A stretch of 64,000 bases of DNA from Calditrichota bacterium (GTDB taxonomy: Bacteria > Caldisericota > Caldisericia > UBA6126), in assembly GCA_036725105.1 (NCBI GenBank), contig DAIMET010000002.1, positions 5,534-69,533 on the forward strand, written 5' to 3'. The position numbers were made by a program, and so were the translations under genes. Below are positions 11,483 through 37,885 of the stretch, one piece after another (position 1 is the stretch's first letter; each line of letters begins with the position of its first letter). The notes beneath the pieces are model-generated. The model made no database searches. It was not told the DNA's origin and saw nothing but the letters and a program-made list of their open reading frames with translations.

Positions 11483-12314
11483 ACGTATAGGTGGTCTTGG
11501 TAAAGGACTTGGGGCATTATTAGATGATTATAAAGATGACACAGCAACGGCGATCCGGGAAGTTCAAATAGAGTTGATTAAAAAATCCCCTTATCAGCCA
11601 CGGGTATTTATTGATCCAAATTCTATAATTGAATTAGCACAATCGATCAAAGAAAATGGTTTAATTGAACCTTTAGTAGTACGATTTGTCCATTCGTATT
11701 ACGAATTGATTGCTGGACATAGAAGGTTAGAAGCTCTTAGGTCTTGCGGTTATACAAAGGTTCCTGTGTATGTTTTGGATATTTCTGATCGTCAAGCTGC
11801 TCAGTTAACCATCGTAGAAAACATTCAACGGGAAGACTTAAACCCCCTTGATTTAGCTTCTAGCCTACAAACTCTAATTCAAGAATTTTCAATCACACAC
11901 GAAGAGTGTGCTTCTTCTATCGGAAAAAGCAGGGTATATGTTACAAATTCTCTTCGCCTCCTACAACTCGATGAAGAATCAAAAAAAGCACTACAGGAAA
12001 ATAAGATACAAGAGGGCCATGCAAGATTACTTCTTTCAATCAAAGAAATTGAAAATCGGCAGCGGGTGCTTTCTTATTTAATAGAAAAAAAGCTCACTGT
12101 TAAAGAACTTTCACATTATATTCTGAAAACCTGTGGAAAAAAGAAACAAAAGATTGTTCGTTTTCCACATTACAAAGAGCAAGAAAAAGTATTACGGGAA
12201 TTCCTGCACAAACCGGTGAAAGTTTTCCACAACCAAATTACTATCAAGTTTAAAGATGAGAAGGAGTTGCAGGAAATCTTTAAACATTTTCAACTCCCCT
12301 ATAAGTATGATTAA
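11475..12314 (+). CDS. parB: Chromosome partitioning protein ParB/Spo0J
   Basis: GLGKGLGALL N-terminus and ParB box IEPLVVR..YELIAGHRRLEA. Overlaps the parA stop. Confidence 0.9.
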   Translation: MNKRIGGLGKGLGALLDDYKDDTATAIREVQIELIKKSPYQPRVFIDPNSIIELAQSIKENGLIEPLVVRFVHSYYELIAGHRRLEALRSCGYTKVPVYVLDISDRQAAQLTIVENIQREDLNPLDLASSLQTLIQEFSITHEECASSIGKSRVYVTNSLRLLQLDEESKKALQENKIQEGHARLLLSIKEIENRQRVLSYLIEKKLTVKELSHYILKTCGKKKQKIVRFPHYKEQEKVLREFLHKPVKVFHNQITIKFKDEKELQEIFKHFQLPYKYD

Positions 12315-13705: not shown

Positions 13706-13958
13706 AAAAAATCCTTTGCAAGTATAAAAAATTTATGTATCGTTGATGTAAGTTATTGTACTGGAAATCCTTCGTTTATAAAGACAACTTAAGGCTTTTA
13801 AAAAAGTGTGAAACGAGAAAATTTGAGAAAAAAAGCAACTAAACGAAAGAAAACATGGAAATCGCAATTTGTTGTTATATAATTTATCCAATTGATGAAA
13901 TAACTTAATGACGTTGAAAGCTACGAGGTTATTGTATGTTTTGGATTGCTTCCATAAT

Positions 13959-13986
13959 TTGATTTTATGGTAGTCTATGGTATTTT
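13959..13986 (+). promoter_or_regulatory. Candidate extended -10 promoter for the giant-gene pair
   Basis: TTGATT (13959-13964), 16-nt spacer, TGgTATTTT (13978-13986), ~115 nt upstream of ATG 14106. Confidence 0.3.
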
Positions 13987-14105
13987 TGACATACTTTGTG
14001 TTGTACGTTTTTTCCCTATTCGCGGAAGGGTAGAGGAAGCTGATAAAATCAGGCTTCTTCCGGTCAGAAAACCCTTAACAGCGAAGATGAGAAAGGAGAA
14101 CTGAG

Positions 14106-17100
14106 ATGAAAAAGATATTCGCTTGGTTAGTCATCTCTTTTATGGCTGTTGCTCTGCTACAGAATCCTTTTAACAATGCTGTGAATATTACTACAGCTAA
14201 TGAAGAATTAAACAAAGCTACCTTTATTGCAGTTAGGCTTGTTCCTGCCCGGTTCAATAGAGATGGGCAGCAACTTGAAGGTAAGCTATTTCCCTGGCAG
14301 CGATCTGGAGAAACTGTTTGGGGGCGAGAGGGCTATGGTATGCCCAATTCTTTATTAGCTATAGAGAATGAAAACAATATACCAGCACTCTTACCAAACA
14401 CACAAGCAGAACCTCTATTCTGGGCCAAGTTCTATCTCGATGTTATCGCTGATGGTGGTAAATCTCGATTTAAAGAACCTTGGTACGTGGTGTATGATAA
14501 TTGTGGTCAATTTTGGTTAGATCCAGACGGGTATTTCAACGATTCTCGTTATTTCGAACCTGCAGACCCTTCTAACCTAAATGGAAAATACCAAACCAAC
14601 CTGTGTACGAACAATCCCAACGCCCTGGTTGATCCATCTACGGGAAACAACACACAAGGACCATACATCCTGGACCCCGATAACCCTCGTTTTGATATGT
14701 TCCACGGACCAACATTCATCGACCAAGACGGAAACACATGTATTTATTTTTGGGACCGAAACAACACAATGAGATATTTCCGAATGGGCTGGATTGATAT
14801 GGTTGATTTTCCTCTAGAAAGAGGAGAGGGTTCTGTCCCCCCCATTCGACCATCTGTTGTACAGGGTGAAAATTACGTCTCGACCAAGTATATTGGAACT
14901 ATGGATTGGGACGCTCAACAAGCATACTCTTTACTCGAATTCCGATATTGGGGATTACCTGGTAGTACAGGGTTTAATTTCGATGATGACCCTGTTGTAC
15001 AACCCGACTATACTCTCGAACCCAATAAGTCTTTCCGCTGGTATTACAACAGCGACATGGACGATTTGCAATCCAAGCGCGCTCTTACTGGCGACGAACT
15101 CCATGCAGATAATGTTTCAGATGAGGCACAAAACAAAACTGCCTCTATCACCGTAAACTACCCACCATTTTCTATGCCAGAACAGCTCCATCGCTTTTAC
15201 ACACAGATATCCGACTTCGATCCTGGAGAACACATTTACCGCAAAGGCGAATATGCAAATACATTTCCAACCTACTCCTTCTTTGTTCAAGAAGGGGATT
15301 ATCGTTTAACTCCCGTATCTGTATATTTCAACGGAGAAACCCGAAACTATCCCCCAAACAGTAAAGTTTTACCTGGTGATTGGGATTGCGCATATGACCG
15401 CAATGGTGACCCCGTTAACCAAGCCGTTCCCTCTCATTACAAATCTTTATTCCGTTTCCGTACCAATTTTGCCGAATACAACGTCGACGAAGGTACTAAC
15501 GGAGGAGAGCGAATCCGTAAAGAAGATGACGAACTCCACGTTGACAACACAAAAACTCCTGCAGATTCTAAGTGGCACGAAGCATGGTATTCTTACGAAC
15601 ACAAAGAGTGGATATATAGAGATCGAGGAACCGACCCACAAACGTACGGACGTGTTACTGTTGGAGACTATCGTTTAACCAACGTAAATGGCCCCGTATT
15701 TGCTGGATTGAAAAAAGACCGTAACCGCGGTCTTGTGAGTTCTGATGTTCAACTTATGGTTAGTAAAGCATTGAAAGAAACATCTACACCATACGTCCCT
15801 CGTGTACGCGGGGATGCACTGGTATTAGCTGAAGTTATATTTGGTGGCGGAAACAATTCTCTTTACAACCTTTCCATCGAAAGTGATATATGGCAAGGTG
15901 AGATTCCTGATTTCACAGCTGCATCAATACGTTCCCAGAGTGGGAGCTTTTTACCAACTGCACAATCTATGCAACGTAACACCGTCCTAGATGATGATGG
16001 ACGTACATTTGATATTTCTGCAACCACCTTCCAAGATGTTGATGTTCGATATCGCGAATACTTGGGTCTTGAAATGTGGAAGGATGACGGTATTGACAAT
16101 AACACTGGAGAAAACTTTGTCGATAATCCTCCTCCACCCATCGATACACTTTTCCCATATAACCTTTCCGACGACTATCGACCTGGTAGAACAGGTGAAG
16201 AGTTTTTAGGCTGTTCCAACGACATTGTTGCTGACAAAGATTACGGTCGAATGTTATCTCCATTTCCTTTCGATATCATGTACCATGATACCACCGCTCT
16301 TGATGCCTCAGATCCTATTGGCAACCCCTACTCATACGGATGCGGTGAAGCAATTTATAAAAATAAAATCATTCAACCTGGAGCTCTCCAGGTTGTTGAT
16401 CCTGGCGACGAAAGAATTACCGAAGTTACTGTTACAGTTGGCGAAAATGTAATCACATACCCAGCCAACACCACCGTTGTTGATGGTGATTCTGACGTTG
16501 GCTTGTCTCTCTTCAACTTCGATTACGACGAAATGTTTTTTGATCAAGAATGGCCAGAAAAATGTATTGAGAAAAACTATACATATGATACCGGAGAAGG
16601 TATTTATCTGACAGAATCTAAAGTTCCTCGCGATGCTCCACTCTACACCCTCATATCTCAAACTGAAATTGATAACTACTTTTTCTGGGGAGAAATCCCA
16701 TTTGAAACCGTCCTCTATTTTGACCATGATTGGGATCCAGTGGTAAATCCTGTTCACACCATAACCCCAGGGGACGTCCGTGTTCTGGATCTATCGGGGC
16801 AATATGAACCCGGATCCATTGTTAGTTCCAACATGCTCATTGATATGGACTTGTACTATGACATGGATCCAACTCCAGCCCATATCCGAGTATATCAAGA
16901 CCCCATTTTCCCTGCTTCACATGTCGGTGGATATGTTGATGTGGATGAATCCGGATTTGTAAGCACGGGTGATATACGGTTGTATCCGATTTTTGGATAT
17001 CAACCTTATACTGTAGTTGAAGATGGCGATCGAGATAATTCTGACGACCCTCTTAACGAACTCCCACTTATCGCAGAAGACCTTACTTGGTATGGTTATA

Positions 17101-20100
17101 TCAGGCAGTATCAATTACTTCTAAGCGTCCCAGATTTTACCCCTTTCCGTGAAATTCGAATCACTCCTCTGATCATTGATCAGTTCCACACCACCAGACT
17201 TACGAGTATTGTACTTGACAGTACTACCTATGACTGTGGATCTCAAGTGGGCGGAAACAAAAACTATTGGGTAAACGAAAATGTCATTCATGGTTTATCT
17301 GTTGGTAAGAATTGTGATTTCCGTTATATCGACTGGGAAGTATTCCCTTCAGATCGTCTGGGAATGGAATTATCGATCGAACCAGAAATTAAAGTTGAAC
17401 AAACCACGCAAATTCAAATTACCGTTGATCCCCCCCCAAAACCAGAGTATTGGGAAAATGGTGTGTTTCATCCTGCTGAAAAAGTATTTGTTTATATTGT
17501 AAACACCCAAGAGTATATCGGCATTGATTTTAATGAAGACTATCGCGTCATAACTGCCGATGATCCTAAAGCTGTTTTTGAATTCACACCCTACCAGGGA
17601 TCTTGTACCCCAACTGGTTATCACAAAGGTTGGCAGCGAGTATGGAATAGCCAAGAATACCGCTACGAATTGGTTTCTTTTGACAATAACATGAGAATTA
17701 TTGCTGTAAAAGATTGTGGGGGAGTTACGGACCCAACCCCTGGACAATATACAATTTACGATCCATTCTGGAAGATGCACGACAATACCCTGAATTATGC
17801 CGGTAAAACCCGTGGTGATGAAATTTGGTCACCACCAACCTTTCCTACCTACTGTAGAGACTATTCTTGTTTTCCATATCCAAATACCAGCATATTAAAA
17901 AATAGATTCGATACTTACTCACAAGTTTCAATTCCAATTCTTCCCGAAGACATCGACATGCTTCCCTCTAAAAAATGCTTAAGCATTTTAGATCAAAAAT
18001 TTCCAAACCTTTCTGTTAAACTTCGTGATGCAGACAACCTCAAAGATATTAATGATCCCAACGGTCAAACTATCTCTGTTCCTGATGGTCATGAAATAAT
18101 AGCCTTCTATAATGCCTCTGGAGCTGGAATTCAATTCATGTTCACCGGACGCATTAGTGAAAGCCTTGCTGGCAAAGTTTATGGACTCCATTCTATAGGA
18201 GCCACTGAATATGATATTGAAGAAGACCAGCTCATTATTGGTCAATACAACGATGACGAGTCATTGTTTATATGGATGTGGAACGACTGTGGACCAAACC
18301 TGGGAATCCTCGATGAAGGCGATTTTCTTTGGGCTCCCAATCCTTTCTATGATCCAGATACTCCATCCACCGGACCTTCTATATTACCTGGATACCTAAA
18401 AGTAAACATTAGCAGCAACGAACAGATAAAATTCACAGATACTGACTGCTCACAAGGTACAAACAACTGTATTTCATGTGGAGATGGTATGTTTGATGAT
18501 CTTGGTACAGTCACCTATGGAGATACATTTGGTCCTCTCGAGCCGGGTATTCCTCCATTAATTACTGTAGCCACCTATGGCGTTCCTTCTCTGCTTAGAA
18601 ATTATGGACAAGCTCCGTATCCTTCTACAAATGAAGGAGGAGAACTTCCTGTCACTGTTCTTCCTAGAAATGCCTTAACGAAGCTTGCCCTTAAGGTTGA
18701 AACATACAATGTAATTTTCGATTACAATTCAGAAATCAAGCACCCACCCTATTTTGTCCAAACCAATCCAGATCATTCCATAGGTAATTTTGTTGATGAA
18801 ACCTATCTTGATTGGCAAAGACCTAGTTCTGGATTACAACGATTCAACCATTTTGGTACAGACTATTGCGGAGTTCACTTTTTCAAAGTTTTAGCACCCG
18901 ATCCATACGTCAATTTTGTTGAATTCAATACAATTGACCACGCACTTCAAAATTCCCAAGTGGACTATACTGCTGGATTAAATTCTTTATCTCCACTACC
19001 AGTTCCTTCTCCCCAAATTCAAGCACCTTACAACCCTATGGTAATTGATGTTGCCAAAGATTTACGAGCATACCCAGGTGGACAAACTCACACCGGTCGT
19101 GTTGCTGGTGCTGTTAAAAATGGTGGATACTACCGATCCGATGACTATCATAGCGGTTGGAATGCCTATCCCGCTGTTTGGTGGTGGTATTGGTATGGAG
19201 AGGATGTTAATTACAATCAATTCGTCGATTTTAACAAACTAGGAACTGAGTTTTTCCCTCTAACCGATTATGGTACCTTTTTTATCTTGAAAGATATTGA
19301 TGGAAACCACTTAAGTTTCAGCGAGGAAACAGAACCCGATTACCGTATTAGAAAAATAGAATTATCTGGTCCTATAGCAAGACCAAAAATTTTCGATCCC
19401 GTCAAGCAGACAATAAGTTCTGAATATCGCTATAACAATCTTCGTCATGTTCCCATTGTTTATGATTGGGAAAACAGTATTGTGATTGACAGTTCCAACT
19501 ATGCAGAGTTTGAAATGTCCTGGGATAATAAATACTACGGTAGAAAAGAAGACTATCCTCTAAATGTAAATGGAACGTATTCCAACCGTGAAGTATTTGA
19601 TTGGACTAGCACACGATCTGATGGAACTAAGTATCAGTATACGAATCCACTGCTTTTAGGTGGTGGACAACTCGATTTTAGAGGACTCAACAACGTATTT
19701 CGTATTGACGAATTTGTCCCCATTGCAAATGGATTGATACAAATCAAAGTAACTTTGTATGACGGTACGGTGAAAGTATATCAAGATTGTTGCGCGGAAC
19801 CTCCAACAGATGGTATCGAAGTACATGCACTAACAGTTGAATCAGATATTGAAGAACTATATGCAGACCAAGACAACAAAATTGAGGTAAAAGTAACCGA
19901 ACATACAACATTCCAAGAAGAAATGTTGGTAAATGATGCATTGGTTTACATCTGGCAAGACCGCGGTGTGATTGGCGATGTTGATGGTATGTATGAGGGA
20001 GCTGGTGATGGATGGGTAGGAAATCCTCCTCATTCCAGTAAATATACTGAGCTTGCCCCCCAATACCTAGAAGATGAAGATTTTAACAAAGATGGCAAAA

Positions 20101-23015
20101 TCTCCTTCAAAGAATATGAGACCGAGATTATTGGTTCCTATGACCTTGCCACCAATACCTGGACAGGTGGTGTGATAGACGGTAGAACTTTCCAAAGAGG
20201 AGATGGTGTTTACACGTTCACCATGTCTGTCGAAAACGGTTGCCAAATTGACACCGTTGGTATCGACTTTGGTGGATTAAACAATGAACCTGACCATCTA
20301 ATCTCTGACTATGAAAAACTTCCCGTTATGGTAACCGCTTATAAATATGGTGACGACAATACAGATCGTTCCTTTGAACCGCTGTATAACTATGGAGGAA
20401 CTACTCCACAATTCTCACACGAAGTATATTTAGCAGGCCAGAAGTTTTTACCTGTTGAACCCATTATTGATCTGACTGCTTCTGTTCAACCAAGTCCGTT
20501 AACAGCCGGTGTAACGCCAGAACTTGTCGATCCTGTTTCACCCCTATCTTTTGTCTTAACCGACGAAGAAGGTACACCAGTCGATCTTTCAATAGGTATT
20601 CCTGACAAAGAAGGCAAATACGCTATTGATGACGATGATGTTTGGAATCACTTGTTCCGTGATGTTCACCCTGATCCTCTACCAGATTATTACTGGCTTC
20701 GAACAGACCTTCATAATAATGACGGTACTCGTGAGAATAATCACCAACTCTATTCTGTTTCTGCTTCTGCACCATTTAGTCCAATTGATATTGATTTCAA
20801 CCTAAAGACAGATGGTAAGTATTCTTTCCGAGGTTTCTGTGCCAACGATGAAGGAGAATTTGATGTATTTATCTATACTCCTGATCGTAAGCATGCTGCC
20901 AAGGTAAATGTAAAAGTAGTACTACCAACGGTTGAATATGAAGTAACCAATATTGATGATCCAGCTGGAACATCATATTCTGTACCGGGTAACCCCGATT
21001 TTGTATTAACCGCAGCTGACAATAGAATCTATCGAATCACAATTACTGCAAAGAACGCACAAGGTCTCTTATTGAAAGGTGTAAGCAAAGGCGTTAGCAC
21101 TTGTGGCGGAGGTATTAAAAATACTGCTCGCTTCACTCCTTATACAACACGACCAGAGTCATTTGACTTTAATGAAAGAGATCGAAATCTCTTTGCAGAA
21201 CACTTCATGCAAGACTTATATCCGTACACAATCCACCTTGGATTCGACTTCAACGACAACAAGCAAGTCGACAATAGAAATTCTGAATTATGCCTACCTG
21301 GAACATTCTATCAATCACCTAAACCAGGTGCTGATCAACAAGAGATTGGTAAAGTTTACTACAATACAACTCTCGTCCGATTTGACGAACAAAGTATTCA
21401 TGGTGGATGGGATGTTACTCCAAATCCTAACCTAACACCACCTACGGTTGGTTGGGGTCTTGGTGCTATTTACAATAGCGCTCACAAAGGCGGCTACTTG
21501 TTTGCCGATATTGATCCAAACGAAAAGCTTGACTACCACGATTCCCTAGGTTTGGATGTCAATGCACAAACCACCTTCTATGTCTTCGCAGAAGATATAT
21601 GCTATATCGGCGGATTAGTAGGCGACAATGTGTATTGTAATAATCCATCTCAAGCTGATCTTTGTGGATATCCTCCAAAGTATAAAACTGATCCTGCACA
21701 CACTATTTCACGATTTGATCCCGGTAGAACCAATGACAATACATTCTTCCTCGATTGGGAAGCTTTCCCCAGCCACGAAGTTCACATTGCACCTCCACGC
21801 CTGACCGTACTTTCTGCTCTCACCCGTGTTGAACTTGGACAAGATCTCCTGAATGCTGCCAATTACGATTTAACCTATGCCATTGAAAACAACATGATTG
21901 TGCAAGTACGACCTGCCGACTCTCGTGATCTTCCTATGCACGAAGATGGCCGGGTCTTCTTGTTTGGTAATCAACACCAAACTGCCATTTACGGCGATAC
22001 TACTGCTTCCCCTACAGATCCATCTGTCATGGAAACCACTCTCTTCTTCACCCCCACCGGCGTTGGCGAACAAATTGCCTCTCTGGGATACTTCAATCCC
22101 AACCACCACTATCATGTTGAACCATACCAATTTGACAACACCTCTACATATACTCTCCGTGACCTTCTCCACTTTGATTCCATTGTTGGATTACAAGTGG
22201 AAGTTGCTTCTGTTCCTTCTCTGAATCCCAATGTCACTTCTGAGCTTACCATTTCGGTTTCAGAAATCGGAACCAATGCACCCGTTGAAGGTGCAAAAGT
22301 AACCATTGAAGGACCTGGTATCAATACGACCGGTACCACCAATGAGCAAGGCGTTTTGAACACAAAAGTCACTCCCAACAAAAAAGGAATTGTAACCATT
22401 CACGTTACCAATACCAACATGATGGAAGGCCATACAGAAGTATGGGTCAAACCAGACACAACTGAACCTATTCTAGAATTGGATCCCGTGGCCTCTATTA
22501 CTAACAAAGCCACCCTGGAAGTGACCGGAATGACCAATCCTGGCAATGAAGTAACAGTCAACAATGAACCTGCTACCGTTTCACAAAATGGGACCTTCTC
22601 CATTCGTGTTACGTTGGAAGAAGGACTCAATACAATTATCGCTACTGCCACCACCCCCACCGGAAAGACTGTACGCCGTATGCTCACTATTACCCTTGAT
22701 ACGACCCCTCCCATGATTTTTGTTGATGATCCAGGGGCACTCCAGGGATCAGAACCCTTCACCTATACCCTTACAGGCCGTGTAGAACCAGACTGTAAAG
22801 TGACTGTCAACAACCAAGACGCAACTGTAACCCATGACATATGGTCCATTGATGTGACCATCAAACCAGGGAAAAATGCTTTTGTCATTACAGCCACTGA
22901 TGTTGCAGGTAATGTCAATACGATGAATTTTGAAGTGATTGTACAAGAAATTGAAAAGCAGAATTCTTTTGTATACCAACACCCTGTTAGTGTTCGGTAT
23001 GAAGGAATTTTGTAA
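14106..23015 (+). CDS. Giant secreted protein, 2,969 aa, unknown family (paralogue 1); C-terminal Ig-like beta-sandwich modules
   Basis: Uninterrupted 8.9 kb ORF. AAGGAG lies 7 nt before the ATG. The N-terminus is hydrophobic (MKKIFAWLVISFMAVALL). It aligns along its full length with the next ORF. The last ~250 aa (VEGAKVTIEGPGINTTGTTNEQGVL.., DTTEPILELDP.., DTTPPMIFVDDP..) look like Big/CarboxypepD_reg-type modules. Confidence 0.8.
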   Translation: MKKIFAWLVISFMAVALLQNPFNNAVNITTANEELNKATFIAVRLVPARFNRDGQQLEGKLFPWQRSGETVWGREGYGMPNSLLAIENENNIPALLPNTQAEPLFWAKFYLDVIADGGKSRFKEPWYVVYDNCGQFWLDPDGYFNDSRYFEPADPSNLNGKYQTNLCTNNPNALVDPSTGNNTQGPYILDPDNPRFDMFHGPTFIDQDGNTCIYFWDRNNTMRYFRMGWIDMVDFPLERGEGSVPPIRPSVVQGENYVSTKYIGTMDWDAQQAYSLLEFRYWGLPGSTGFNFDDDPVVQPDYTLEPNKSFRWYYNSDMDDLQSKRALTGDELHADNVSDEAQNKTASITVNYPPFSMPEQLHRFYTQISDFDPGEHIYRKGEYANTFPTYSFFVQEGDYRLTPVSVYFNGETRNYPPNSKVLPGDWDCAYDRNGDPVNQAVPSHYKSLFRFRTNFAEYNVDEGTNGGERIRKEDDELHVDNTKTPADSKWHEAWYSYEHKEWIYRDRGTDPQTYGRVTVGDYRLTNVNGPVFAGLKKDRNRGLVSSDVQLMVSKALKETSTPYVPRVRGDALVLAEVIFGGGNNSLYNLSIESDIWQGEIPDFTAASIRSQSGSFLPTAQSMQRNTVLDDDGRTFDISATTFQDVDVRYREYLGLEMWKDDGIDNNTGENFVDNPPPPIDTLFPYNLSDDYRPGRTGEEFLGCSNDIVADKDYGRMLSPFPFDIMYHDTTALDASDPIGNPYSYGCGEAIYKNKIIQPGALQVVDPGDERITEVTVTVGENVITYPANTTVVDGDSDVGLSLFNFDYDEMFFDQEWPEKCIEKNYTYDTGEGIYLTESKVPRDAPLYTLISQTEIDNYFFWGEIPFETVLYFDHDWDPVVNPVHTITPGDVRVLDLSGQYEPGSIVSSNMLIDMDLYYDMDPTPAHIRVYQDPIFPASHVGGYVDVDESGFVSTGDIRLYPIFGYQPYTVVEDGDRDNSDDPLNELPLIAEDLTWYGYIRQYQLLLSVPDFTPFREIRITPLIIDQFHTTRLTSIVLDSTTYDCGSQVGGNKNYWVNENVIHGLSVGKNCDFRYIDWEVFPSDRLGMELSIEPEIKVEQTTQIQITVDPPPKPEYWENGVFHPAEKVFVYIVNTQEYIGIDFNEDYRVITADDPKAVFEFTPYQGSCTPTGYHKGWQRVWNSQEYRYELVSFDNNMRIIAVKDCGGVTDPTPGQYTIYDPFWKMHDNTLNYAGKTRGDEIWSPPTFPTYCRDYSCFPYPNTSILKNRFDTYSQVSIPILPEDIDMLPSKKCLSILDQKFPNLSVKLRDADNLKDINDPNGQTISVPDGHEIIAFYNASGAGIQFMFTGRISESLAGKVYGLHSIGATEYDIEEDQLIIGQYNDDESLFIWMWNDCGPNLGILDEGDFLWAPNPFYDPDTPSTGPSILPGYLKVNISSNEQIKFTDTDCSQGTNNCISCGDGMFDDLGTVTYGDTFGPLEPGIPPLITVATYGVPSLLRNYGQAPYPSTNEGGELPVTVLPRNALTKLALKVETYNVIFDYNSEIKHPPYFVQTNPDHSIGNFVDETYLDWQRPSSGLQRFNHFGTDYCGVHFFKVLAPDPYVNFVEFNTIDHALQNSQVDYTAGLNSLSPLPVPSPQIQAPYNPMVIDVAKDLRAYPGGQTHTGRVAGAVKNGGYYRSDDYHSGWNAYPAVWWWYWYGEDVNYNQFVDFNKLGTEFFPLTDYGTFFILKDIDGNHLSFSEETEPDYRIRKIELSGPIARPKIFDPVKQTISSEYRYNNLRHVPIVYDWENSIVIDSSNYAEFEMSWDNKYYGRKEDYPLNVNGTYSNREVFDWTSTRSDGTKYQYTNPLLLGGGQLDFRGLNNVFRIDEFVPIANGLIQIKVTLYDGTVKVYQDCCAEPPTDGIEVHALTVESDIEELYADQDNKIEVKVTEHTTFQEEMLVNDALVYIWQDRGVIGDVDGMYEGAGDGWVGNPPHSSKYTELAPQYLEDEDFNKDGKISFKEYETEIIGSYDLATNTWTGGVIDGRTFQRGDGVYTFTMSVENGCQIDTVGIDFGGLNNEPDHLISDYEKLPVMVTAYKYGDDNTDRSFEPLYNYGGTTPQFSHEVYLAGQKFLPVEPIIDLTASVQPSPLTAGVTPELVDPVSPLSFVLTDEEGTPVDLSIGIPDKEGKYAIDDDDVWNHLFRDVHPDPLPDYYWLRTDLHNNDGTRENNHQLYSVSASAPFSPIDIDFNLKTDGKYSFRGFCANDEGEFDVFIYTPDRKHAAKVNVKVVLPTVEYEVTNIDDPAGTSYSVPGNPDFVLTAADNRIYRITITAKNAQGLLLKGVSKGVSTCGGGIKNTARFTPYTTRPESFDFNERDRNLFAEHFMQDLYPYTIHLGFDFNDNKQVDNRNSELCLPGTFYQSPKPGADQQEIGKVYYNTTLVRFDEQSIHGGWDVTPNPNLTPPTVGWGLGAIYNSAHKGGYLFADIDPNEKLDYHDSLGLDVNAQTTFYVFAEDICYIGGLVGDNVYCNNPSQADLCGYPPKYKTDPAHTISRFDPGRTNDNTFFLDWEAFPSHEVHIAPPRLTVLSALTRVELGQDLLNAANYDLTYAIENNMIVQVRPADSRDLPMHEDGRVFLFGNQHQTAIYGDTTASPTDPSVMETTLFFTPTGVGEQIASLGYFNPNHHYHVEPYQFDNTSTYTLRDLLHFDSIVGLQVEVASVPSLNPNVTSELTISVSEIGTNAPVEGAKVTIEGPGINTTGTTNEQGVLNTKVTPNKKGIVTIHVTNTNMMEGHTEVWVKPDTTEPILELDPVASITNKATLEVTGMTNPGNEVTVNNEPATVSQNGTFSIRVTLEEGLNTIIATATTPTGKTVRRMLTITLDTTPPMIFVDDPGALQGSEPFTYTLTGRVEPDCKVTVNNQDATVTHDIWSIDVTIKPGKNAFVITATDVAGNVNTMNFEVIVQEIEKQNSFVYQHPVSVRYEGIL
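21453..22942 (+). repeat. Direct repeat copy A (3' end of giant gene 1), ~1.49 kb
   Basis: Matches 30606-32095 at a constant offset of 9,153 nt. I found two mismatches by eye (21494, 21521) and none from 21522 onward. Confidence 0.9.
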
Positions 23016-23072
23016 TAGTTTGTTATGCAAAACGATAGACAACAAACGATGGTTTTTGAAAGGAGAATTGGT

Positions 23073-26000: not shown

Positions 26001-29000
26001 CCAGGAGCTACAATTCCCGACTACAAATCTCTCTATGTGGATATGGATAATAGCTATGATCCGCTCGATCCTACCCCTGAAAAAACATGGTTGACTCCTA
26101 ATGACGTTCGATTAACATGGAGCTATATATATGCTCCCTTTACCGTAGTCCAACCTGAAGATTTTGATTATGAACACTACATTATTCCCGAAAGCCCTCT
26201 TGGCTTGGGTGCTTGCGATGCAAACCTTCGCCTGTGGGATCGCGTCGATCACAACGTTCTAATATCCGATCCAGAAAATGACGATGAAATACTATACGAT
26301 GCTGTTTGGGGTATCGGTGTATTATCTGCTCCCGATCCATCTGTGTACTTAGATGACATTATTGTCATGATCAAGACCAAAAAAGACAACACACGCATGA
26401 CCGATATTCAAATTGAAGATAATACCTATCTTTGCGGTTCTCTTATCGGTGAAAAAATACATTATTGGTGGAATCAAAATATTGTTCATGGTTTTACAGT
26501 TGGAAAAAACGGTGACTCCCGTTTCATTGACTGGGAAGTCTTCCCTTCCGATAAACTTGGAATGGAAGTTCACGTCACCGAAGAACTAAAAGTTGAACAA
26601 ACCTCTACATTAAAGATTACCGTAGAACCACCACCTAGACCAGGTTATTGGGATGACAATGTGTACATTCCCCAAGAAGAAGTATATGTGTTTGTAAAAG
26701 ATGTTGTTACTGGGAGAAATATATTCATTGATGAAGATTACCGCGTGTTAGACGGTGATCATCAAATGACTTCCTTCGAGATCACTCCATACCGTGGATC
26801 TTGCTCTGTTGATGGAAACTACAAAGGTTTCAAAAGATTGTATGAAGAAGGACGATACGTATTAGAAGATTTTGATAATCGCTTGCGAATTGTCGCCATA
26901 CGAAATACCGGTGGTATTGATGATAGCGTTCCACCAGAGGTTTCTTTGTATGATCCTTTCTGGAAACAACACGATAATAGGTCTTATTTCAACGGCCAAA
27001 ATGAACTTGGACGACTTATTGGACATGCCTATGGGTGTAAACCTCAATCCACACCTCCTTGGAACGACAATATTCCCCCTCTATTCCACACCAGTTATGA
27101 TTGTTTTACGGACATGGCATATGTAGTGGGATCCGAGGATATGCGTTTTACTGCTAATAAAAAATGCGTTGGTGTTTTGGATCAAAAATTCCCCAATTTA
27201 TTTATCAATCTCATTGACAAAGATAACAAAAATGATGTGAATGATCCAGCTGATCTTCCCATATCTACTATAGCAGGAAGAGAAGTAGTAGCTTTTTATA
27301 ACGCAAATGGTGCAGGCATTGATTATATGTTTACCGGGTATATGGTAGAGCCACTTGACTCTTCTATAGCTCGTGTGTATAACAATGACGACATGGGCGT
27401 TAATGATCCTTACTACGATGATCTAGCTTACTCTGAAAAAGTAATTGTACAAGTGAATGAAGATGGTACATTCTGTTACTGGCATTGGGACGATGTCGGA
27501 CCTCACAAGGGCATTCTAGACCCCGGCGACGATCTATGGGTACCAAATCCAAATTATATTGGACCGCTCCCAGTTGGTGGCGACAAGTATGATATTGCCT
27601 ATATGGAACGAATACCTGGTTATATTCAAACCGTTAACAGCCCACAAGTGTTTGACAGTGATTGCTCCGAAGGTAAATATCAATGTCACAATTGTGGTGG
27701 CAGTGATTTCCGAAATGATGGTCTGGTATCTTACGGTGATAAATATGGTCCATTCAAAGTTGCTACTTTTGGTGTACCTGTTTATCTTCGAAACCATGGG
27801 GATACAAACTATTCCTCATCTGATAGCGGTGGTGTGATTCCTGTAACAGTTATTCCCCGTTCTGCTGCTACCAAACTCCAAGTACAAGTAAAAACTTTTA
27901 ACCTTATATTTGATTACAACTCTGAAATTCAACATCCACCTTATTTTATTGAAGATGGCATTGTATGTCCTCCTGGAATGTTCCACGACGAAGTTTTCTT
28001 TGATATTATTGGAAATCCCGGAGGAGGTTTGCGTCGTTATGAATCCATGGGAGTTGACTATTGTGGTGTTAAGTCCTTCAAAGTCTTAGCTCCTGATCCA
28101 TATGTTAACTTTGCTGAAATGGCAATGGTTGACCATGCATTACAAAATTCAGAAGTGAATTACACATCTGGAACCATGGATAATCAACCAATATCTAATC
28201 TTCCCTTACCTACACCTCAGATTCAATCTCCCTACAATCCAATTGTCCAAGACGTAGGAAGAGACTGCAAAGGATATCCTGGCGGCCAGACACACACTGG
28301 TAGATTACGCGGTGGAGTTATTTCCAGCGGATATACCCGAACTACTGAAGACCATTCCGGATGGAATGCATATCCAGCCATATGGTGGTGGAAATGGTAT
28401 GATGATGTTGACATTAACAATTTTACTGATTTCAATAAATTGGGTACAGAATTCTTCCCTCTAACCGATTATGGAATATACTTCATCGTCAAAGATATTA
28501 ATGGAAACCATCTCAGTTTTGACGAAAAAACCGATCAAGATTTCCGTATTCGACGTATGGAAATTACTGGGCCATTTGCTCAACCAAAAATATTCAACCA
28601 GGTGAAGCATACTGTTACACCAGAATACGAATATAACAATGTTCGCAATGTACCTATTAACTACGACTGGTCTGGAAAGATTGTTGTTGAGCACTCCAAT
28701 ATGCAAGATTACGAGTATGATTACGGATATGATTGGACAGATAAAAACGGTGATTGGGATATTTCTCAACCCGATAACGAGCTAACAAAATATCCTAATG
28801 AAAATGCTCAATTACGCGATGGAGGACAACTTGACTTCCGAGGACTTACCAATGTCTTCCGTTTTGAAGAAATAATCCCTATTTCTCATGGAATCATAAA
28901 CATTAAAGTTATTCTATGGGACGGAACAGTAAAAATTTACCAAGATTGTTGTGCTGAACCTCCAACCGATGGTATTGATGCACATGCATTGGAAATTGTT

Positions 29001-32000
29001 ACTGAATCGGATCATGTTGTTGCAGATGTTGACAACAAAGTAGTTGCAACCATTAAAGAATACGAAATGATGCAAAGCACTGAAATGTGTAATGATGCCT
29101 TCGTATTTGTATGGCAAGATCGCGGTGTTGCCACCAAAAACAGCAAATTATTCAATGGTGCAGGTGATGGTTGGGTTACCAATCCTCCCAGAAATACTGT
29201 AACTACCGAATTAAAAGAACAATATGACTGGGAAGAAGATTTAAATAATGACGGCAAGATTTCCTTCCGTGATTATGAAACTGAAATTATCGGTACATAC
29301 GATATGGCTACCAATACTTGGGCTGGTGGATTGATTGATGCTCGAACCTTCCAACGAAACAATGGACTATATGAGTTTGATCTGTCTGCTTCCAACGGTG
29401 CGCTGGTTAATACAATCGGTATTGATTTTGGTGGTCCAAACGATGAACCTGATCACGTCATCAGTGAAAATGAAACCCTTCCTATTATGATTACAGCATA
29501 CAAGTATGGAGATGACGACAACGATCGTGCTTTCACTCCGCTCTATGGATTGCCAGGAACACCTCCTCAATATTCCCATGAAGTATATCTTTCTGGGCAA
29601 AAATTCCTAACCATTGAACCTGTATTTGACCTGTCTGTATCCGTTCAACCTAACCCCTTGACAGCTGGTGTAACCCCTGAACTTGTCGATCCTGTTTCAC
29701 CTCTTTCTTTTGTACTTACTGACCAAGAAGGCAATCCTGTTGACCTATCTGTTGGTGTTTTAGACATGAAGGGCAATCGTGAAGTATTAGATGACCATAT
29801 TTGGAATTTCTTATTCAAGGATATTCACCCTGATCCACTTCCAGAATATTATTGGCTGCGAACCGACCTTCACAACGATGACGAAACTCGCATATCCAAC
29901 CGATACCTATACTCTACTTCTTCTGCTGCCTTCCAACCTATCAAGATTGATTTCAGCCTTGCAAAAGACGGTAAATATGCTTTCCGAGGTTTCTGTGCCA
30001 ACGATGAAGGAGAATTTGATGTAATCATTTACACTCCTGACCGCAAGCATGCTGCCAAAGCACAAGTGAATGTTGTATTGCCGACTGTTGAATATAGTAT
30101 TGCAAATGCAGAAGACCCTGGTTTAACCACCTACATGGTACCTGGTGAACCAGATTTTGTGTTAACCGCAGCCGACAATAGAATCTATCGGATCACGATT
30201 ACTGCAAAGAATGCACAAGGTCTCTTGTTGAAAGGTGTAAGCAAAGGCGTCAGCACTTGTGGTGGTGGTATTAAAAATACTGCTCGCTTTACTCCTTACA
30301 TGACTAGACCAGCATCTTTTGATTTTGACGAAAAAGATCGCAAACTTTTTGCAGAACACTTCCTGCAAGACTTGTATCCCTACATTCCTCATCTTGGTTT
30401 TGACTTCAATGACAATGCTAAGATTGACCGTACAGCTTCCGAACTATGCCAAGCTGGTGGATTTGTTCATACCAAAAACCGCAACGATCAAGTCACACTT
30501 GGACATGTGTATTACAATACAACTCTCGTCCGATTTGATGAACAAAGCATTTATGGTGGATGGGATATCGAACCAAACCGCGGTTTAGTTCCCCCTGTAA
30601 AAGGGTGGGGTCTTGGTGCTATTTACAATAGCGCTCACAAAGGCGGTTACTTGTTTGCCGATATTGATCCAAATGAAAAGCTTGACTACCACGATTCCCT
30701 AGGTTTGGATGTCAATGCACAAACCACCTTCTATGTCTTCGCAGAAGATATATGCTATATCGGCGGATTAGTAGGCGACAATGTGTATTGTAATAATCCA
30801 TCTCAAGCTGATCTTTGTGGATATCCTCCAAAGTATAAAACTGATCCTGCACACACTATTTCACGATTTGATCCCGGTAGAACCAATGACAATACATTCT
30901 TCCTCGATTGGGAAGCTTTCCCCAGCCACGAAGTTCACATTGCACCTCCACGCCTGACCGTACTTTCTGCTCTCACCCGTGTTGAACTTGGACAAGATCT
31001 CCTGAATGCTGCCAATTACGATTTAACCTATGCCATTGAAAACAACATGATTGTGCAAGTACGACCTGCCGACTCTCGTGATCTTCCTATGCACGAAGAT
31101 GGCCGGGTCTTCTTGTTTGGTAATCAACACCAAACTGCCATTTACGGCGATACTACTGCTTCCCCTACAGATCCATCTGTCATGGAAACCACTCTCTTCT
31201 TCACCCCCACCGGCGTTGGCGAACAAATTGCCTCTCTGGGATACTTCAATCCCAACCACCACTATCATGTTGAACCATACCAATTTGACAACACCTCTAC
31301 ATATACTCTCCGTGACCTTCTCCACTTTGATTCCATTGTTGGATTACAAGTGGAAGTTGCTTCTGTTCCTTCTCTGAATCCCAATGTCACTTCTGAGCTT
31401 ACCATTTCGGTTTCAGAAATCGGAACCAATGCACCCGTTGAAGGTGCAAAAGTAACCATTGAAGGACCTGGTATCAATACGACCGGTACCACCAATGAGC
31501 AAGGCGTTTTGAACACAAAAGTCACTCCCAACAAAAAAGGAATTGTAACCATTCACGTTACCAATACCAACATGATGGAAGGCCATACAGAAGTATGGGT
31601 CAAACCAGACACAACTGAACCTATTCTAGAATTGGATCCCGTGGCCTCTATTACTAACAAAGCCACCCTGGAAGTGACCGGAATGACCAATCCTGGCAAT
31701 GAAGTAACAGTCAACAATGAACCTGCTACCGTTTCACAAAATGGGACCTTCTCCATTCGTGTTACGTTGGAAGAAGGACTCAATACAATTATCGCTACTG
31801 CCACCACCCCCACCGGAAAGACTGTACGCCGTATGCTCACTATTACCCTTGATACGACCCCTCCCATGATTTTTGTTGATGATCCAGGGGCACTCCAGGG
31901 ATCAGAACCCTTCACCTATACCCTTACAGGCCGTGTAGAACCAGACTGTAAAGTGACTGTCAACAACCAAGACGCAACTGTAACCCATGACATATGGTCC

Positions 32001-32105
32001 ATTGATGTGACCATCAAACCAGGGAAAAATGCTTTTGTCATTACAGCCACTGATGTTGCAGGTAATGTCAATACGATGAATTTTGAAGTGATTGTTGAAG
32101 AATAG
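23073..32105 (+). CDS. Giant secreted protein, 3,010 aa, unknown family (paralogue 2)
   Basis: Uninterrupted 9 kb ORF. The start is set at ATG 23073, with AGGAG 7 nt upstream, giving MKKLTSGLIALLMFASILQVGFYSVPAKA/AE with an AxA cleavage site. The track start at 23025 adds 16 residues. A strong terminator follows. Confidence 0.8.
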   Translation: MKKLTSGLIALLMFASILQVGFYSVPAKAAESQNAVFIASRFIPVGFERDGTALDPGIDFPWQKPGEMCWGGDEYGMPDTELAVLAHYIYSEEPLGLTPEPVSESYKKGPNEYAFGDINIPARPDQPHFDELGNQLYDQEGFPITTNTTVQPLLWTEFYLMVDPASGKSQEYNRWYAVYDSAGQLWFDKDGYFNDCRYYEFADPSNLYDTYEVQFDPEKNDLEKFLSAFQENNTCRNNKNAIVDPIGSNNTQGPYFLDPDHPMYRGDMDAGGITRNYFWDREGTGRYFRIGWIDMPDFPILIDEFGVRSPTSVVGNLSTHGETKKADWDGAAQYPLYDFSYWGLPSDFADSMGLPRSVSCEGVEQVDSNAQPYDDYTWYYTSDPNDDESMYVNVYDELHADNINASGNRIKPDPVDDGIDYYANVSAYHPGEWIYRKGVDTSTLPPTPNNDYTVQVGDFRLTPVAVRMDDGKTYYKYAANTTVKEGDKDVDISLWRFVANFAETGMFAGERTGKANDEMHTENINSSRSTTWGMDFDWTLYEYGEWIYKEAGTTGFGVVSYGDFRLSNVNNLINPITNAKYLKRGYVNATMIPVPAYPGSLTKVPRIYGDVLLLGEVLHGGCNEPTYNLSVQTDVWSGIMPSVTSAALRSPNKDIQGAVQSVQKNTVLDPTGEEFFVPATTFQNINLKYREYIGVEIFKDNGVSNDICDLDETLTRAERYNLFPYNLSDDQEEGIACEEYLGAEDSIITSRDIGRVLTPFPSDVMYYEGSQNPIYGCQEPIYKNKNKVDDGLGNQIVNEGDIRLTDRMITRSNLVTEYKAGSEVSEGDLDVGDILFHFSKLDMFYDQDWPNEKIFKNGTYDIGEDIYHLGNMEIDQKQFLPVNHQFYMGLTTGSGTERYFDTVLYYDADGDGKASPGDIRVFDLSGRFPNGSILTVHDADCPTSLSSWDNYDTLLYYPMDGLVDIFTLAEDYDVSRPGATIPDYKSLYVDMDNSYDPLDPTPEKTWLTPNDVRLTWSYIYAPFTVVQPEDFDYEHYIIPESPLGLGACDANLRLWDRVDHNVLISDPENDDEILYDAVWGIGVLSAPDPSVYLDDIIVMIKTKKDNTRMTDIQIEDNTYLCGSLIGEKIHYWWNQNIVHGFTVGKNGDSRFIDWEVFPSDKLGMEVHVTEELKVEQTSTLKITVEPPPRPGYWDDNVYIPQEEVYVFVKDVVTGRNIFIDEDYRVLDGDHQMTSFEITPYRGSCSVDGNYKGFKRLYEEGRYVLEDFDNRLRIVAIRNTGGIDDSVPPEVSLYDPFWKQHDNRSYFNGQNELGRLIGHAYGCKPQSTPPWNDNIPPLFHTSYDCFTDMAYVVGSEDMRFTANKKCVGVLDQKFPNLFINLIDKDNKNDVNDPADLPISTIAGREVVAFYNANGAGIDYMFTGYMVEPLDSSIARVYNNDDMGVNDPYYDDLAYSEKVIVQVNEDGTFCYWHWDDVGPHKGILDPGDDLWVPNPNYIGPLPVGGDKYDIAYMERIPGYIQTVNSPQVFDSDCSEGKYQCHNCGGSDFRNDGLVSYGDKYGPFKVATFGVPVYLRNHGDTNYSSSDSGGVIPVTVIPRSAATKLQVQVKTFNLIFDYNSEIQHPPYFIEDGIVCPPGMFHDEVFFDIIGNPGGGLRRYESMGVDYCGVKSFKVLAPDPYVNFAEMAMVDHALQNSEVNYTSGTMDNQPISNLPLPTPQIQSPYNPIVQDVGRDCKGYPGGQTHTGRLRGGVISSGYTRTTEDHSGWNAYPAIWWWKWYDDVDINNFTDFNKLGTEFFPLTDYGIYFIVKDINGNHLSFDEKTDQDFRIRRMEITGPFAQPKIFNQVKHTVTPEYEYNNVRNVPINYDWSGKIVVEHSNMQDYEYDYGYDWTDKNGDWDISQPDNELTKYPNENAQLRDGGQLDFRGLTNVFRFEEIIPISHGIINIKVILWDGTVKIYQDCCAEPPTDGIDAHALEIVTESDHVVADVDNKVVATIKEYEMMQSTEMCNDAFVFVWQDRGVATKNSKLFNGAGDGWVTNPPRNTVTTELKEQYDWEEDLNNDGKISFRDYETEIIGTYDMATNTWAGGLIDARTFQRNNGLYEFDLSASNGALVNTIGIDFGGPNDEPDHVISENETLPIMITAYKYGDDDNDRAFTPLYGLPGTPPQYSHEVYLSGQKFLTIEPVFDLSVSVQPNPLTAGVTPELVDPVSPLSFVLTDQEGNPVDLSVGVLDMKGNREVLDDHIWNFLFKDIHPDPLPEYYWLRTDLHNDDETRISNRYLYSTSSAAFQPIKIDFSLAKDGKYAFRGFCANDEGEFDVIIYTPDRKHAAKAQVNVVLPTVEYSIANAEDPGLTTYMVPGEPDFVLTAADNRIYRITITAKNAQGLLLKGVSKGVSTCGGGIKNTARFTPYMTRPASFDFDEKDRKLFAEHFLQDLYPYIPHLGFDFNDNAKIDRTASELCQAGGFVHTKNRNDQVTLGHVYYNTTLVRFDEQSIYGGWDIEPNRGLVPPVKGWGLGAIYNSAHKGGYLFADIDPNEKLDYHDSLGLDVNAQTTFYVFAEDICYIGGLVGDNVYCNNPSQADLCGYPPKYKTDPAHTISRFDPGRTNDNTFFLDWEAFPSHEVHIAPPRLTVLSALTRVELGQDLLNAANYDLTYAIENNMIVQVRPADSRDLPMHEDGRVFLFGNQHQTAIYGDTTASPTDPSVMETTLFFTPTGVGEQIASLGYFNPNHHYHVEPYQFDNTSTYTLRDLLHFDSIVGLQVEVASVPSLNPNVTSELTISVSEIGTNAPVEGAKVTIEGPGINTTGTTNEQGVLNTKVTPNKKGIVTIHVTNTNMMEGHTEVWVKPDTTEPILELDPVASITNKATLEVTGMTNPGNEVTVNNEPATVSQNGTFSIRVTLEEGLNTIIATATTPTGKTVRRMLTITLDTTPPMIFVDDPGALQGSEPFTYTLTGRVEPDCKVTVNNQDATVTHDIWSIDVTIKPGKNAFVITATDVAGNVNTMNFEVIVEE
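30606..32095 (+). repeat. Direct repeat copy B (3' end of giant gene 2), ~1.49 kb
   Basis: Partner of 21453-22942. Off-frame and antisense ORFs in the track are duplicated letter for letter, e.g. 21870-22172 = 31023-31325 and 22400-22762 = 31553-31915. Confidence 0.9.
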
Positions 32106-32124: not shown

Positions 32125-32163
32125 AAAAGCCCGAAAGCATGTGTATGCTTTCGGGCTTTTTTT
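32125..32163 (+). terminator. Rho-independent terminator after giant gene 2
   Basis: Perfect 16-bp stem AAAAGCCCGAAAGCAT / ATGCTTTCGGGCTTTT with loop GTGT, followed by a T-run. Confidence 0.8.
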
Positions 32164-37793: not shown

Positions 37794-37885
37794 TGGCGGA
37801 GAGGGGGAGATTCGAACTCCCGGAGCGGGATAAACCACTCACTCGCTTAGCAGGCGAGCACCTTCAGCCACTCGGTCACCTCTCC
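37794..37885 (-). tRNA. tRNA-Ser (anticodon GCU), 92 nt with long variable arm, CCA encoded
   Basis: The reverse complement reads GGAGAGGTGACCGAGTGGCTGAAGGTGCTCGCCTGCTAAGCGAGTGAGTGGTTTATCCCGCTCCGGGAGTTCGAATCTCCCCCTCTCCGCCA. The acceptor stem is GGAGAGG/CCTCTCC, the anticodon loop is CU-GCU-AA, and the T-loop is TTCGAAT. Confidence 0.9.

Follow-up and report, generated by a model that had tools for sequence, protein, structure and literature searches.

Two giant tandem genes and their leader

The stretch of DNA analyzed here (the window) is 64,000 nucleotides (nt) of contig DAIMET010000002.1, positions 5,534 to 69,533 of the forward strand, from the Calditrichota bacterium assembly GCA_036725105.1, which is placed by GTDB in the phylum Caldisericota (Caldisericia; UBA6126). 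This phylum is deep-branching and has a single cultured species, and its envelope type (diderm or monoderm) is disputed. An earlier note on the window, made from the sequence alone, had singled out two very large tandem genes next to dnaA, here called A and B, as a candidate envelope, sheath or adhesin system of no recognizable family. We describe the two genes, the protein family to which they belong and the surface role that their products may have. The features of the locus are as follows.

13853..14105, + strand: conserved upstream region of A, 253 nt, with promoter-like hexamers and a leader of ~215 nt
14106..23015, + strand: gene A, 2,969 amino acids (aa), 335 kDa, isoelectric point (pI) 4.4; intact open reading frame (ORF) with an AAAGGAG ribosome-binding site
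23016..23072, + strand: A-B spacer, 57 nt, terminator-free, containing the ribosome-binding site GAAAGGAG of B
23073..32105, + strand: gene B, 3,010 aa, 338 kDa, pI 4.4; paralogue of A
32125..32163, + strand: intrinsic terminator after B, a 17-bp stem followed by a T run

In the ORF list and translations of the window, A and B are both uninterrupted and co-directional, at the coordinates first reported for them. The ORF of B in its longest form begins at 23025, where an in-frame ATG has no ribosome-binding site. The ATG at 23073 is preceded by the ribosome-binding site GAAAGGAG 7 nt upstream (the sequence reads GAAAGGAGAATTGGT-ATG) and opens a canonical MKK plus hydrophobic N-terminus. For these reasons we took 23073 as the start of B, and with this start the 57-nt gap claimed between the genes holds. 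The start of A lies in the same AAAGGAG context (AGAAAGGAGAACTGAG-ATG). The two proteins align end to end with 54.7% identity, so that their proposed full-length paralogy stands.

Upstream of the pair are dnaA (12347-13705, minus strand), parA and parB; downstream come a gene of the AMMECR1 family and one of GH18/SH3 type. No convincing + strand terminator was detected by our scan between A and B. The one after B folds at -27.7 kcal/mol (z = -7.25), which none of 200 shuffled sequences matched, and this confirms it as the strong terminator that had been proposed. Because the conserved upstream region is common to both genes, the spacer is short and lacks a terminator, and a single strong terminator follows the pair, A and B plausibly form one operon, as suggested previously, and are probably co-transcribed.

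Interruption of the genes in other assemblies had been named as grounds for doubt. The pair is intact and in the same order in four independent assemblies, complete in L002/L012 and L013 and traceable until the contig end in L008. In L002 the orthologue of B (P0005) is 86% identical and occupies the same tandem position.

The upstream region 13853-14105 is 92-96% identical to its counterparts in L002, L013 and L005, as compared with 68% for the dnaA-proximal half of the spacer, ~78% for coding DNA and saturation at synonymous sites. The promoter candidate noted earlier at 13959-13986 is a TTGAC-type site (8/12 by eye), but our scan ranked TGGAAA-16-TATAAT at 13856-13883 higher (10/12), with additional TTGAC-type hexamers downstream of it. 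In the leader, RNAalifold pairs TTTTTC (14009-14014) with GAGAAA (14089-14094, the 5' half of the Shine-Dalgarno sequence) and TTCGC (14019-14023) with GCGAA (14081-14085), and these two helices enclose a variable hairpin (14026-14076). All of the covariation falls in that hairpin, with 6 double-change pairs versus 2.1 ± 1.2 after shuffling; the helices predicted to cover the Shine-Dalgarno sequence are invariant and hence uninformative on covariation. Rfam scans of the window and the leader gave no match in the leader and no riboswitch, and the leader motif was found upstream of A-type orthologues only. We read 13853-14105 as a promoter followed by a structured 5' leader that may be regulatory or stabilizing, with an origin-related DNA element as a weaker alternative. 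An oriC explanation of this conservation is unsupported, as there is no DnaA-box cluster in the dnaA-A spacer, although the box consensus used may not be the phylum's own.

Architecture of the encoded proteins

Within the proteins we distinguish a signal-peptide-like start, a family-specific head of ~2,100 aa and a conserved beta-sandwich/immunoglobulin (Ig)-like base of ~850 aa, an architecture that rests on the following features.

14106..14192, + strand: signal-peptide-like N-terminus of A, MKKIFAWLVISFMAVALLQNPFNNAVNIT..., by sequence inspection
15084..17267, + strand: part of the head with a dispersed ~60-aa module, from hhalign comparison of family-profile slices
20079..20114, + strand: canonical EF-hand-type loop DFNKDGKISFKE, A aa 1992-2003, from a motif scan
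20463..22940, + strand: C-terminal base module, A aa ~2120-2945, comprising the beta-sandwich region and the Ig-like domains

The MKK plus hydrophobic N-terminus, judged by eye, is present in A and B, as had been claimed, and is conserved in the family consensus; in B it reads MKKLTSGLIALLMFASILQVGFYSVPAKA/AE, that is, with an AKA/AE cleavage-type motif. No further hydrophobic or transmembrane segment occurs beyond the N-terminus in either protein, and both are probably Sec-exported. The unusual composition that first drew attention to them is real (D 8.7-9.4%, N 6.6%, P 6.4-7.1%, Y 5.7%, W 1.7%, C 1.0-1.1%), and so are the conserved Cys clusters, since C1448 and C1895-C1896 are invariant throughout the family.

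Pfam and NCBIfam searches of A and B at an expectation value (E) <= 1 returned only Ig-like domains, all confined to the last ~250 aa. These were Glucodextran_B (E 4e-18 to 1e-19, Pfam), with Big_13, Big_6 and CarboxypepD_reg below their respective cut-offs and NF033510 at 25.1 and 20.9 bits (cut-off 50) over two C-terminal stretches only. Pfam searches of 11 diverse relatives (E <= 0.1) added Ig-type domains and Cu_amine_oxidN1 only. When a 17-sequence family profile was run against all PDB sequences with hmmsearch, nothing was obtained below E 0.029, the value of the best match, a single Ig-like stretch of the scaffoldin chain 4wi0_B; Cohesin and Dockerin gave no Pfam match in A or B. By these profile searches most of the length of A and B falls in no described family.

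The same scans (Pfam and NCBIfam for A and B, Pfam for the 11 relatives) revealed no SLH, CWB2 or other known wall-anchoring module. With regard to LPXTG, type IX secretion system (T9SS) and autotransporter ends, Gram_pos_anchor, Por_Secre_tail and Autotransporter were without a match in A, B and the relatives scanned, and no RTX or HlyD/ABC family was found in A, B or the neighboring genes. No A2M/MG Pfam family occurs in A, B or the 11 relatives, no catalytic or carbohydrate-binding module (CBM) family occurs among the members scanned with Pfam/NCBIfam, and a motif scan of A and B found neither a CxEQ thioester (C.EQ) nor HExxH; signatures of a toxin were likewise absent. The note's statement that A and B lack SLH, LPXTG, T9SS, autotransporter and RTX features is thereby confirmed, and its failure to see catalytic motifs is borne out.

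A, B and 24 relatives align collinearly over ~2,900 aa with all invariant columns present, including the motifs YPGGQTHTGR, QDCC, WQDRG, DxNxDGKISF, TAYKYGDD and SHEVY. Conservation among these 26 members peaks at aa ~1,600-2,650 and is lowest in three indel-rich stretches (aa 250-350, 850-1,000 and 1,800-1,850).

The head has no detectable relatives and holds at least four copies of a novel module of ~60 aa, with the pattern Y-x-x-G-E-x-I-Y-R ... G-D-x-R-L-T-x-V ... Y-x-A-G-S-x-V-x-x-G-D-x-D-x-G. The main copies lie at A aa 327-430, 472-531, 742-800 and 1024-1054 (probability 91-99%, E 5e-18 to 9e-7), and weaker signals (probability 83-93%) lie at aa ~708-752/793-835 and 884-915. It had been noted that the proteins contain no tandem arrays. 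BLAST of A and B against themselves indeed found no internal repeats, but profile comparison revealed this module, dispersed and diverged, 3-5 times within the first 1,050 aa. A profile of the module run against PDB, Pfam and a set of 5.8 billion proteins returned two fragments only, with no match outside the family.

The EF-hand-type loop follows in the conserved middle region. Its columns D1992, N1994, D1996 and F2001 are invariant in the family, while Pfam EF-hand_5 matches the loop below threshold (E 0.13). On the strength of this motif the proteins probably bind Ca2+.

The base contains the sole Ig pair detected in A (aa 2744-2820 versus 2824-2903, hhalign). It is an autonomous module, because short paralogues of ~1,000 aa in other genomes consist of it plus a stalk domain; P0065, for example, is a complete protein of 985 aa in which a signal peptide is followed by a counterpart of A aa ~2,120-2,945 and by Cu_amine_oxidN1 (PF07833), the stalk domain. 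The same domain is C-terminal in 23 of 43 relatives (the search is described below) and in a third subfamily that is ~50% identical to A and to B. The earlier statement that the proteins have no stalk is thus true of A and B, where PF07833 is absent even at E <= 1 and the sequences end in ...VSVRYEGIL and ...VIVEE, respectively, but not of these relatives. Elsewhere in the window, three exported proteins unrelated to the giant family have tandem Cu_amine_oxidN1 domains at the end: 114-1865 (+, 583 aa), 40566-42938 (-, 790 aa; with HYDIN/ASH/BACON-type Ig domains) and 43063-47739 (+, 1,558 aa; with weak cohesin, FlgD-Ig and Por_Secre_tail-like matches). They suggest that the stalk domain is a general surface-anchoring module of the window organism. 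From its distribution it would also be a general surface-retention module of the lineage, which would make the C-terminus of the giant proteins the cell-proximal end. The likeness to other stalk-domain surface proteins, of Firmicutes-like and Caldisericia genomes, is limited to this ending, as A and B end before the stalk and the ~2,900 aa preceding it are unrelated to the rest of those proteins.

To these sequence comparisons we added AlphaFold2 models built from the 26-sequence alignment. They are of medium quality, with a mean per-residue confidence (pLDDT) of ~66. The model of aa 1440-2620 (pLDDT 65.8, predicted template modeling score (pTM) 0.66) is confident over roughly aa 1860-2620; the ~400 residues before that (aa 1440-1860) are mostly unmodelled, with pLDDT < 50 in most stretches, though they are highly conserved. 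Foldseek matched this C-terminal model to multi-beta-sandwich proteins at E 1e-6 to 1e-3, with template modeling (TM) scores of ~0.1. The matches included integrin legs, macroglobulin (MG) domains of alpha-2-macroglobulin and complement C3, the Ig domains of PrgB, mastigoneme proteins and archaeal and Deinococcus S-layer proteins (8c8m, 7ptp and 8cka at E 5e-5 to 3e-4). They point to a string of beta-sandwich domains and to nothing more specific. Ig-like beta-sandwiches had been placed in the last ~250 aa only; the Pfam Ig domains do lie there, but the models extend beta-sandwich structure over the last ~1,100 aa.

The model of aa 30-1130 (pLDDT 65.9, pTM 0.65), also of medium quality, gave nothing below E 0.05 when Foldseek compared it with PDB and the viral library BFVD. 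Structure prediction by segments, which the note had advised, thus recovered beta-sandwich strings in the C-terminal third but no recognizable fold in the N-terminal 1,100 aa, and ~1,800 aa (aa 30-1860) are without a fold assignment. An origin from phage tails or receptor-binding proteins, and several known adhesin folds, are weakened by the matchless N-terminal model, within the limits of its quality.

Family range, constraint and gene conversion

A word-seeded search of 5.8 billion proteins returned the 43 relatives mentioned above, nearly all of 2,200-3,600 aa, and every informative name among them was "Caldisericia bacterium". An exhaustive HMMER search with a core profile of 1,082 positions, run over 1.84 billion cluster representatives, returned 84 proteins, this family alone, and all traceable members were Caldisericia. 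In two protein-guided scans of one genome per GTDB species, at least 127 and 153 stretches were confirmed by tblastn; the matches listed belong to about two dozen Caldisericota species represented by metagenome-assembled genomes (MAGs), including three MAGs titled only "bacterium", and the source habitats are mostly digesters, sludges and sediments. A DNA-pattern scan added one Caldisericia genome. Of its eight matches outside Caldisericota, six are chance matches without protein similarity by tblastn, and two (archaeon MAG L220 and Lachnospiraceae MAG L227) lay outside that check. Caldisericum exile was not among the 247 loci listed from the three scans of GTDB species genomes, which makes its absence likely but does not prove it. 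On this evidence the family appears to be restricted to the phylum Caldisericota.

One protein of mixed content, P0152 (812 aa, ENA), joins ~190 aa of the giant-family core (E 9e-55) to NFACT/FbpA-type Pfam domains. A chimera at the level of the gene call or the contig is more probable than a real fusion.

Copies number about 6-10 per genome and are often in tandem. On the 2.23-Mb chromosome OY771555.1, matches lie at ~112, 592-603, 661-670, 686-696, 740-750, 750-761, 762-772, 772-782 and 1,688 kb; JAXGMQ010000001.1 has about nine copies, mostly at 1.06-1.19 Mb; and AnMBR.bin291, the closest relative of the window (A 95% identical), has at least six over four contigs. At ~9 kb per copy, some genomes devote roughly 3-4% of their length to the family. 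Two or three giant genes commonly stand in tandem, as in L065 (3,238 + 3,542 + >853 aa), while in the P0014 clade a single giant gene adjoins serS and gidA.

When the 704 ORFs that flank 74 loci were clustered, no accessory gene proved to be family-wide, and no transporter, regulator, recombinase or invertible promoter was conserved near family loci. The best co-occurring clusters were serS, dnaA, parA and parB, at 14 loci at most, which corresponds to clade-specific synteny. It follows that A and B are not a two-gene system, as they had been described, but two members of a family of ~6-10 paralogues with no conserved accessory gene nearby. Likewise, homologues were found in about two dozen Caldisericota species, but the position beside dnaA is kept only in the immediate clade (10 loci) and is not a family-wide trait.

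All comparisons indicate strong purifying selection. For A against the 95%-identical orthologue in L008 we obtained a dS of 0.55 and a dN/dS of 0.046, with values of 0.02-0.07 in every 500-codon block. More distant comparisons of A and B gave a dN/dS of about 0.035 (0.034-0.037 for B) with dS saturated. These ratios indicate that A and B are functional and constrained along their entire length, and the constraint is tighter than would be expected for adhesins or S-layer proteins in general.

The 3' ends of the two genes have a different history. The final 1,421 nt of the alignable part of A and B are identical.

21522..22942, + strand: gene-conversion tract, A copy, 1,421 nt, exact identity to 30675-32095
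30675..32095, + strand: gene-conversion tract, B copy, exact identity to 21522-22942

By blocks of 100 aa, A and B are 38-59% identical until aa 1600, and identity then climbs to 100% in the last 473 codons. A codon alignment of six genes, A and B from each of the window, L002 and L013, shows orthologues clustering together over the N-terminal and middle regions (76-82% identity between genomes versus 53-58% between paralogues). In contrast, the last 473 codons group by genome, with within-genome identities of 100% (window), 100% (L002) and 96% (L013) versus 76-82% between genomes. Because the same pattern recurs in independent assemblies, it is attributed to gene conversion and not to an assembly artefact, and recurrent conversion has homogenized the C-terminal base of the two tandem genes in every lineage on its own.

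Beyond the tract, A-type proteins have a tail of ~23 aa (22943-23015) that is missing in B-type proteins. It ends in ...QEIEKQNSFVYQHPVSVRYEGIL in the window and in ...EVL in L002 and L013, is loosely conserved with a hydrophobic end and matches no recognized sorting signal.

We found no published description of the family in the literature searched for Caldisericota giant, S-layer or surface proteins, and its members are named "hypothetical" or "stalk domain-containing" at NCBI. What is new is the family itself, its non-repetitive head of ~2,100 aa with the ~60-aa module, its expansion and the concerted evolution of its 3' ends. The giant, exported, beta-rich surface protein is an already known kind.

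A candidate surface coat and its alternatives

An envelope or adhesin role, as first proposed from the sequence, remains the best reading after this follow-up. In the form that we favor, which in our judgement has about an even chance of being correct, A, B and their relatives are a family of exported, acidic, mostly beta-structured coat or adhesin proteins of the cell surface, probably Ca-binding, whose paralogues jointly coat the cell. We infer the surface location because 23 of the 43 relatives end in a stalk domain, three other proteins of the window carry one and short paralogues made of signal, base and stalk exist; the first of these observations is the main clue.

If this is correct, stalk domains would hold the proteins on the cell wall or envelope, the beta-sandwich base would be a cell-proximal spacer and the large head would face outward. 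The stalkless A and B would be retained via their homogenized base, bound to each other or to stalk-bearing paralogues, and Ca2+ would stabilize their fold. Together the paralogues would constitute a protein surface coat whose divergent heads could differ in the external ligand that they bind, be it particles, polymers or partner cells. Expression of A and B would be controlled through the conserved structured leader of ~215 nt, which would partly occlude the ribosome-binding site.

Giant Ig-repeat adhesins (NF033510 type, Bap/SiiE/LapA-like, PrgB 8beg) offer one point of comparison, as they too are very large, acidic, Ca-associated, Ig-like and extracellular, and PrgB was second in the Foldseek ranking of the C-terminal model. 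A and B differ from them in having only 2-3 Ig domains and no long tandem arrays, in lacking a type I secretion system (T1SS)/RTX, LPXTG or type V secretion system (T5SS) end and in being unique and non-repetitive over ~90% of their length. Alpha-2-macroglobulin and complement C3 resemble them in their beta-sandwich strings (several Foldseek entries at E 1e-5 to 1e-4), but A and B have no CxEQ thioester and no A2M/MG Pfam domains, and TM-scores are < 0.12.

Several points weigh against a coat or adhesin. The reading draws on sequence and predicted models; the signal peptides were judged by eye, and wall or envelope binding by the stalk domain is a prediction from the distribution of that domain. 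A and B have no recognizable anchor and could simply be released. Their codon usage gives no sign of conspicuously high expression (NNC/NNY bias 0.40 for A and 0.35 for B; window range 0.26-0.53). The Foldseek TM-scores of ~0.1 denote generic beta-sandwich strings only, and a catalytic domain could hide in aa 30-1860, which have no fold at a pLDDT of ~66. Finally, adhesins are not usually under such strong and uniform purifying selection, nor is their architecture usually non-repetitive.

The family is nevertheless a concrete candidate for the surface material of Caldisericota, or for the means by which they attach to particles or partners in digesters. For about two thirds of each protein there are neither sequence relatives nor detectable structural relatives, and this part is a source of new folds. 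Should the proteins prove to be ordinary adhesins, the result would be a useful annotation rather than a surprise; the concerted 1.4-kb 3' tract and the ultra-conserved leader are of interest independently.

One alternative is a true S-layer or outer sheath, in which A and B, together with their paralogues, would assemble by themselves into a regular lattice in two dimensions and form the outermost membrane-like layer, resembling two-protein S-layers encoded by one operon. The S-layer proteins of Deinococcus (HPI), Nitrosopumilus (SLP, 8c8m) and Haloferax (csg, 7ptp) are likewise exported, acidic, built of many beta-sandwiches and apparently Ca-stabilized, with a cell-proximal anchoring end and the remainder facing outward, as would be the case for A and B; two of these structures and 8cka are among the Foldseek matches. 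The gene organization also fits. S-layer genes typically have long stable leaders and more than one promoter in tandem, and the Brevibacillus brevis cwp operon (MWP/OWP) has two tandem S-layer genes behind a long leader, an arrangement similar to that of A and B with their strong ribosome-binding sites, long structured leader, several promoter-like sites and strong terminator. Genes of the family lie near the replication origin in two clades (beside dnaA and beside gidA/serS), and constraint over the whole length would suit a lattice with many contacts. On the other hand, the structural matches are generic (TM ~0.1), and A and B, which share no sequence homology with these proteins, are two to six times their size. 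They have no SLH, CWB2 or other known S-layer anchor, their codon usage is unremarkable and 6-10 conserved paralogues per genome under purifying selection exceed the needs of a lattice of one or two proteins. We consider a true lattice unlikely.

A related proposal is that the giant proteins and their paralogues build the membrane-like outer envelope of Caldisericota from protein, as giant non-repetitive subunits with novel folds that would be anchored by stalk-bearing paralogues and have a shared base kept compatible by gene conversion. An outer-membrane-like layer has been seen by electron microscopy in C. exile, which has neither BamA nor other outer-membrane-protein genes (PMC4104836). That layer also makes an S-layer or sheath attractive, but with no C. 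exile among the loci listed from the three scans it cannot be linked to the family. We regard such an envelope as quite unlikely, but interest in the family would be much higher if it were true.

It could also be speculated that the proteins are displayed machines for enzymatic attack on, or binding of, polymers. The ~1,800 aa of the head that lack a fold would then hide a novel catalytic or carbohydrate- or protein-binding domain acting on particulate substrates, with Ig and stalk domains serving as the display module. The very low, uniform dN/dS of 0.02-0.07 is closer to that of enzymes than of adhesins, and so is the abundance of invariant D, E, H, R, Y and W residues, as in YPGGQTHTGR, SHEVY, WQDRG and TAYKYGDDNNDR; the head is non-repetitive and globular in size; Ig and anchor modules are common on exoenzymes, and Glucodextran_B is itself an enzyme-linker domain; and record titles place the organisms in polymer-rich digesters and sludges. 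This is opposed by the lack of any catalytic or CBM family in Pfam or NCBIfam, of a PDB match by sequence profile and of a match below E 0.05 for the N-terminal model in PDB or BFVD, and by the absence of conserved partner genes (transporters, regulators) nearby. An enzymatic or polymer-binding role is accordingly a doubtful one in our estimation.

Another possibility is that the paralogues are a repertoire of variable surface antigens or phage-receptor decoys, alternative coats that are swapped via identical 3' ends and evade phages or predators. The 1.42-kb exact 3' repeat, the recurrence of conversion in three lineages and the divergent heads of the tandem arrays would all be compatible with swapping. 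However, the orthologues of each paralogue are conserved across species at a dN/dS of ~0.05 without any fast-evolving block, every gene has its own start signals, there is no conserved invertible promoter or recombinase nearby and conversion could be a by-product of adjacency. We therefore hold this to be improbable.

An assembly artefact or decaying pseudogenes, which a metagenome-type assembly with a 1.42-kb exact repeat (possibly a collapsed or mis-joined region) might have suggested, are effectively refuted by the uninterrupted pair in the same order in L002/L012, L013 and L008, by the recurrence of within-genome 3' identity in relatives (100% and 96%) and by strong purifying selection over the full length.

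Returning to the giant genes as components of the window, their GC content is 0.40-0.45 versus 0.34-0.39 in the flanks, with ordinary GC at third codon positions. GC skew on the coding strand of 14001-32000 is negative and reaches -0.15 at 30-32 kb, which places the cumulative minimum at ~32 kb and not at dnaA. Both deviations seem to be compositional and driven by amino acid content.

Close to dnaA, just downstream of its stop and inside the 3' end of parB, three copies of TTTTCCACA occur within 100 nt (12132-12231). This sequence is one mismatch from the E. coli DnaA box, and the window overall is not enriched in such matches; the cluster could be origin- or DnaA-related.

The segment 5079-9703 begins with a tmRNA gene (5079-5439, 150 bits), after which come genes for a DNA methylase, a RhuM-family protein and a DUF6880/TPR protein, and its GC is raised to 0.41-0.45 from about 0.37. 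The matching region of L002 holds other genes (methylase, DUF1016/YhcG and ResIII restriction-type), and the segment looks like a variable defence or mobile island inserted beside ssrA. A tRNA gene of 89 nt (56.5 bits) lies at 37797-37885 (-), and 57459-60773 (-) encodes a 1,104-aa protein with SBBP beta-propeller repeats and PG_binding_1, a further large candidate for association with the envelope.

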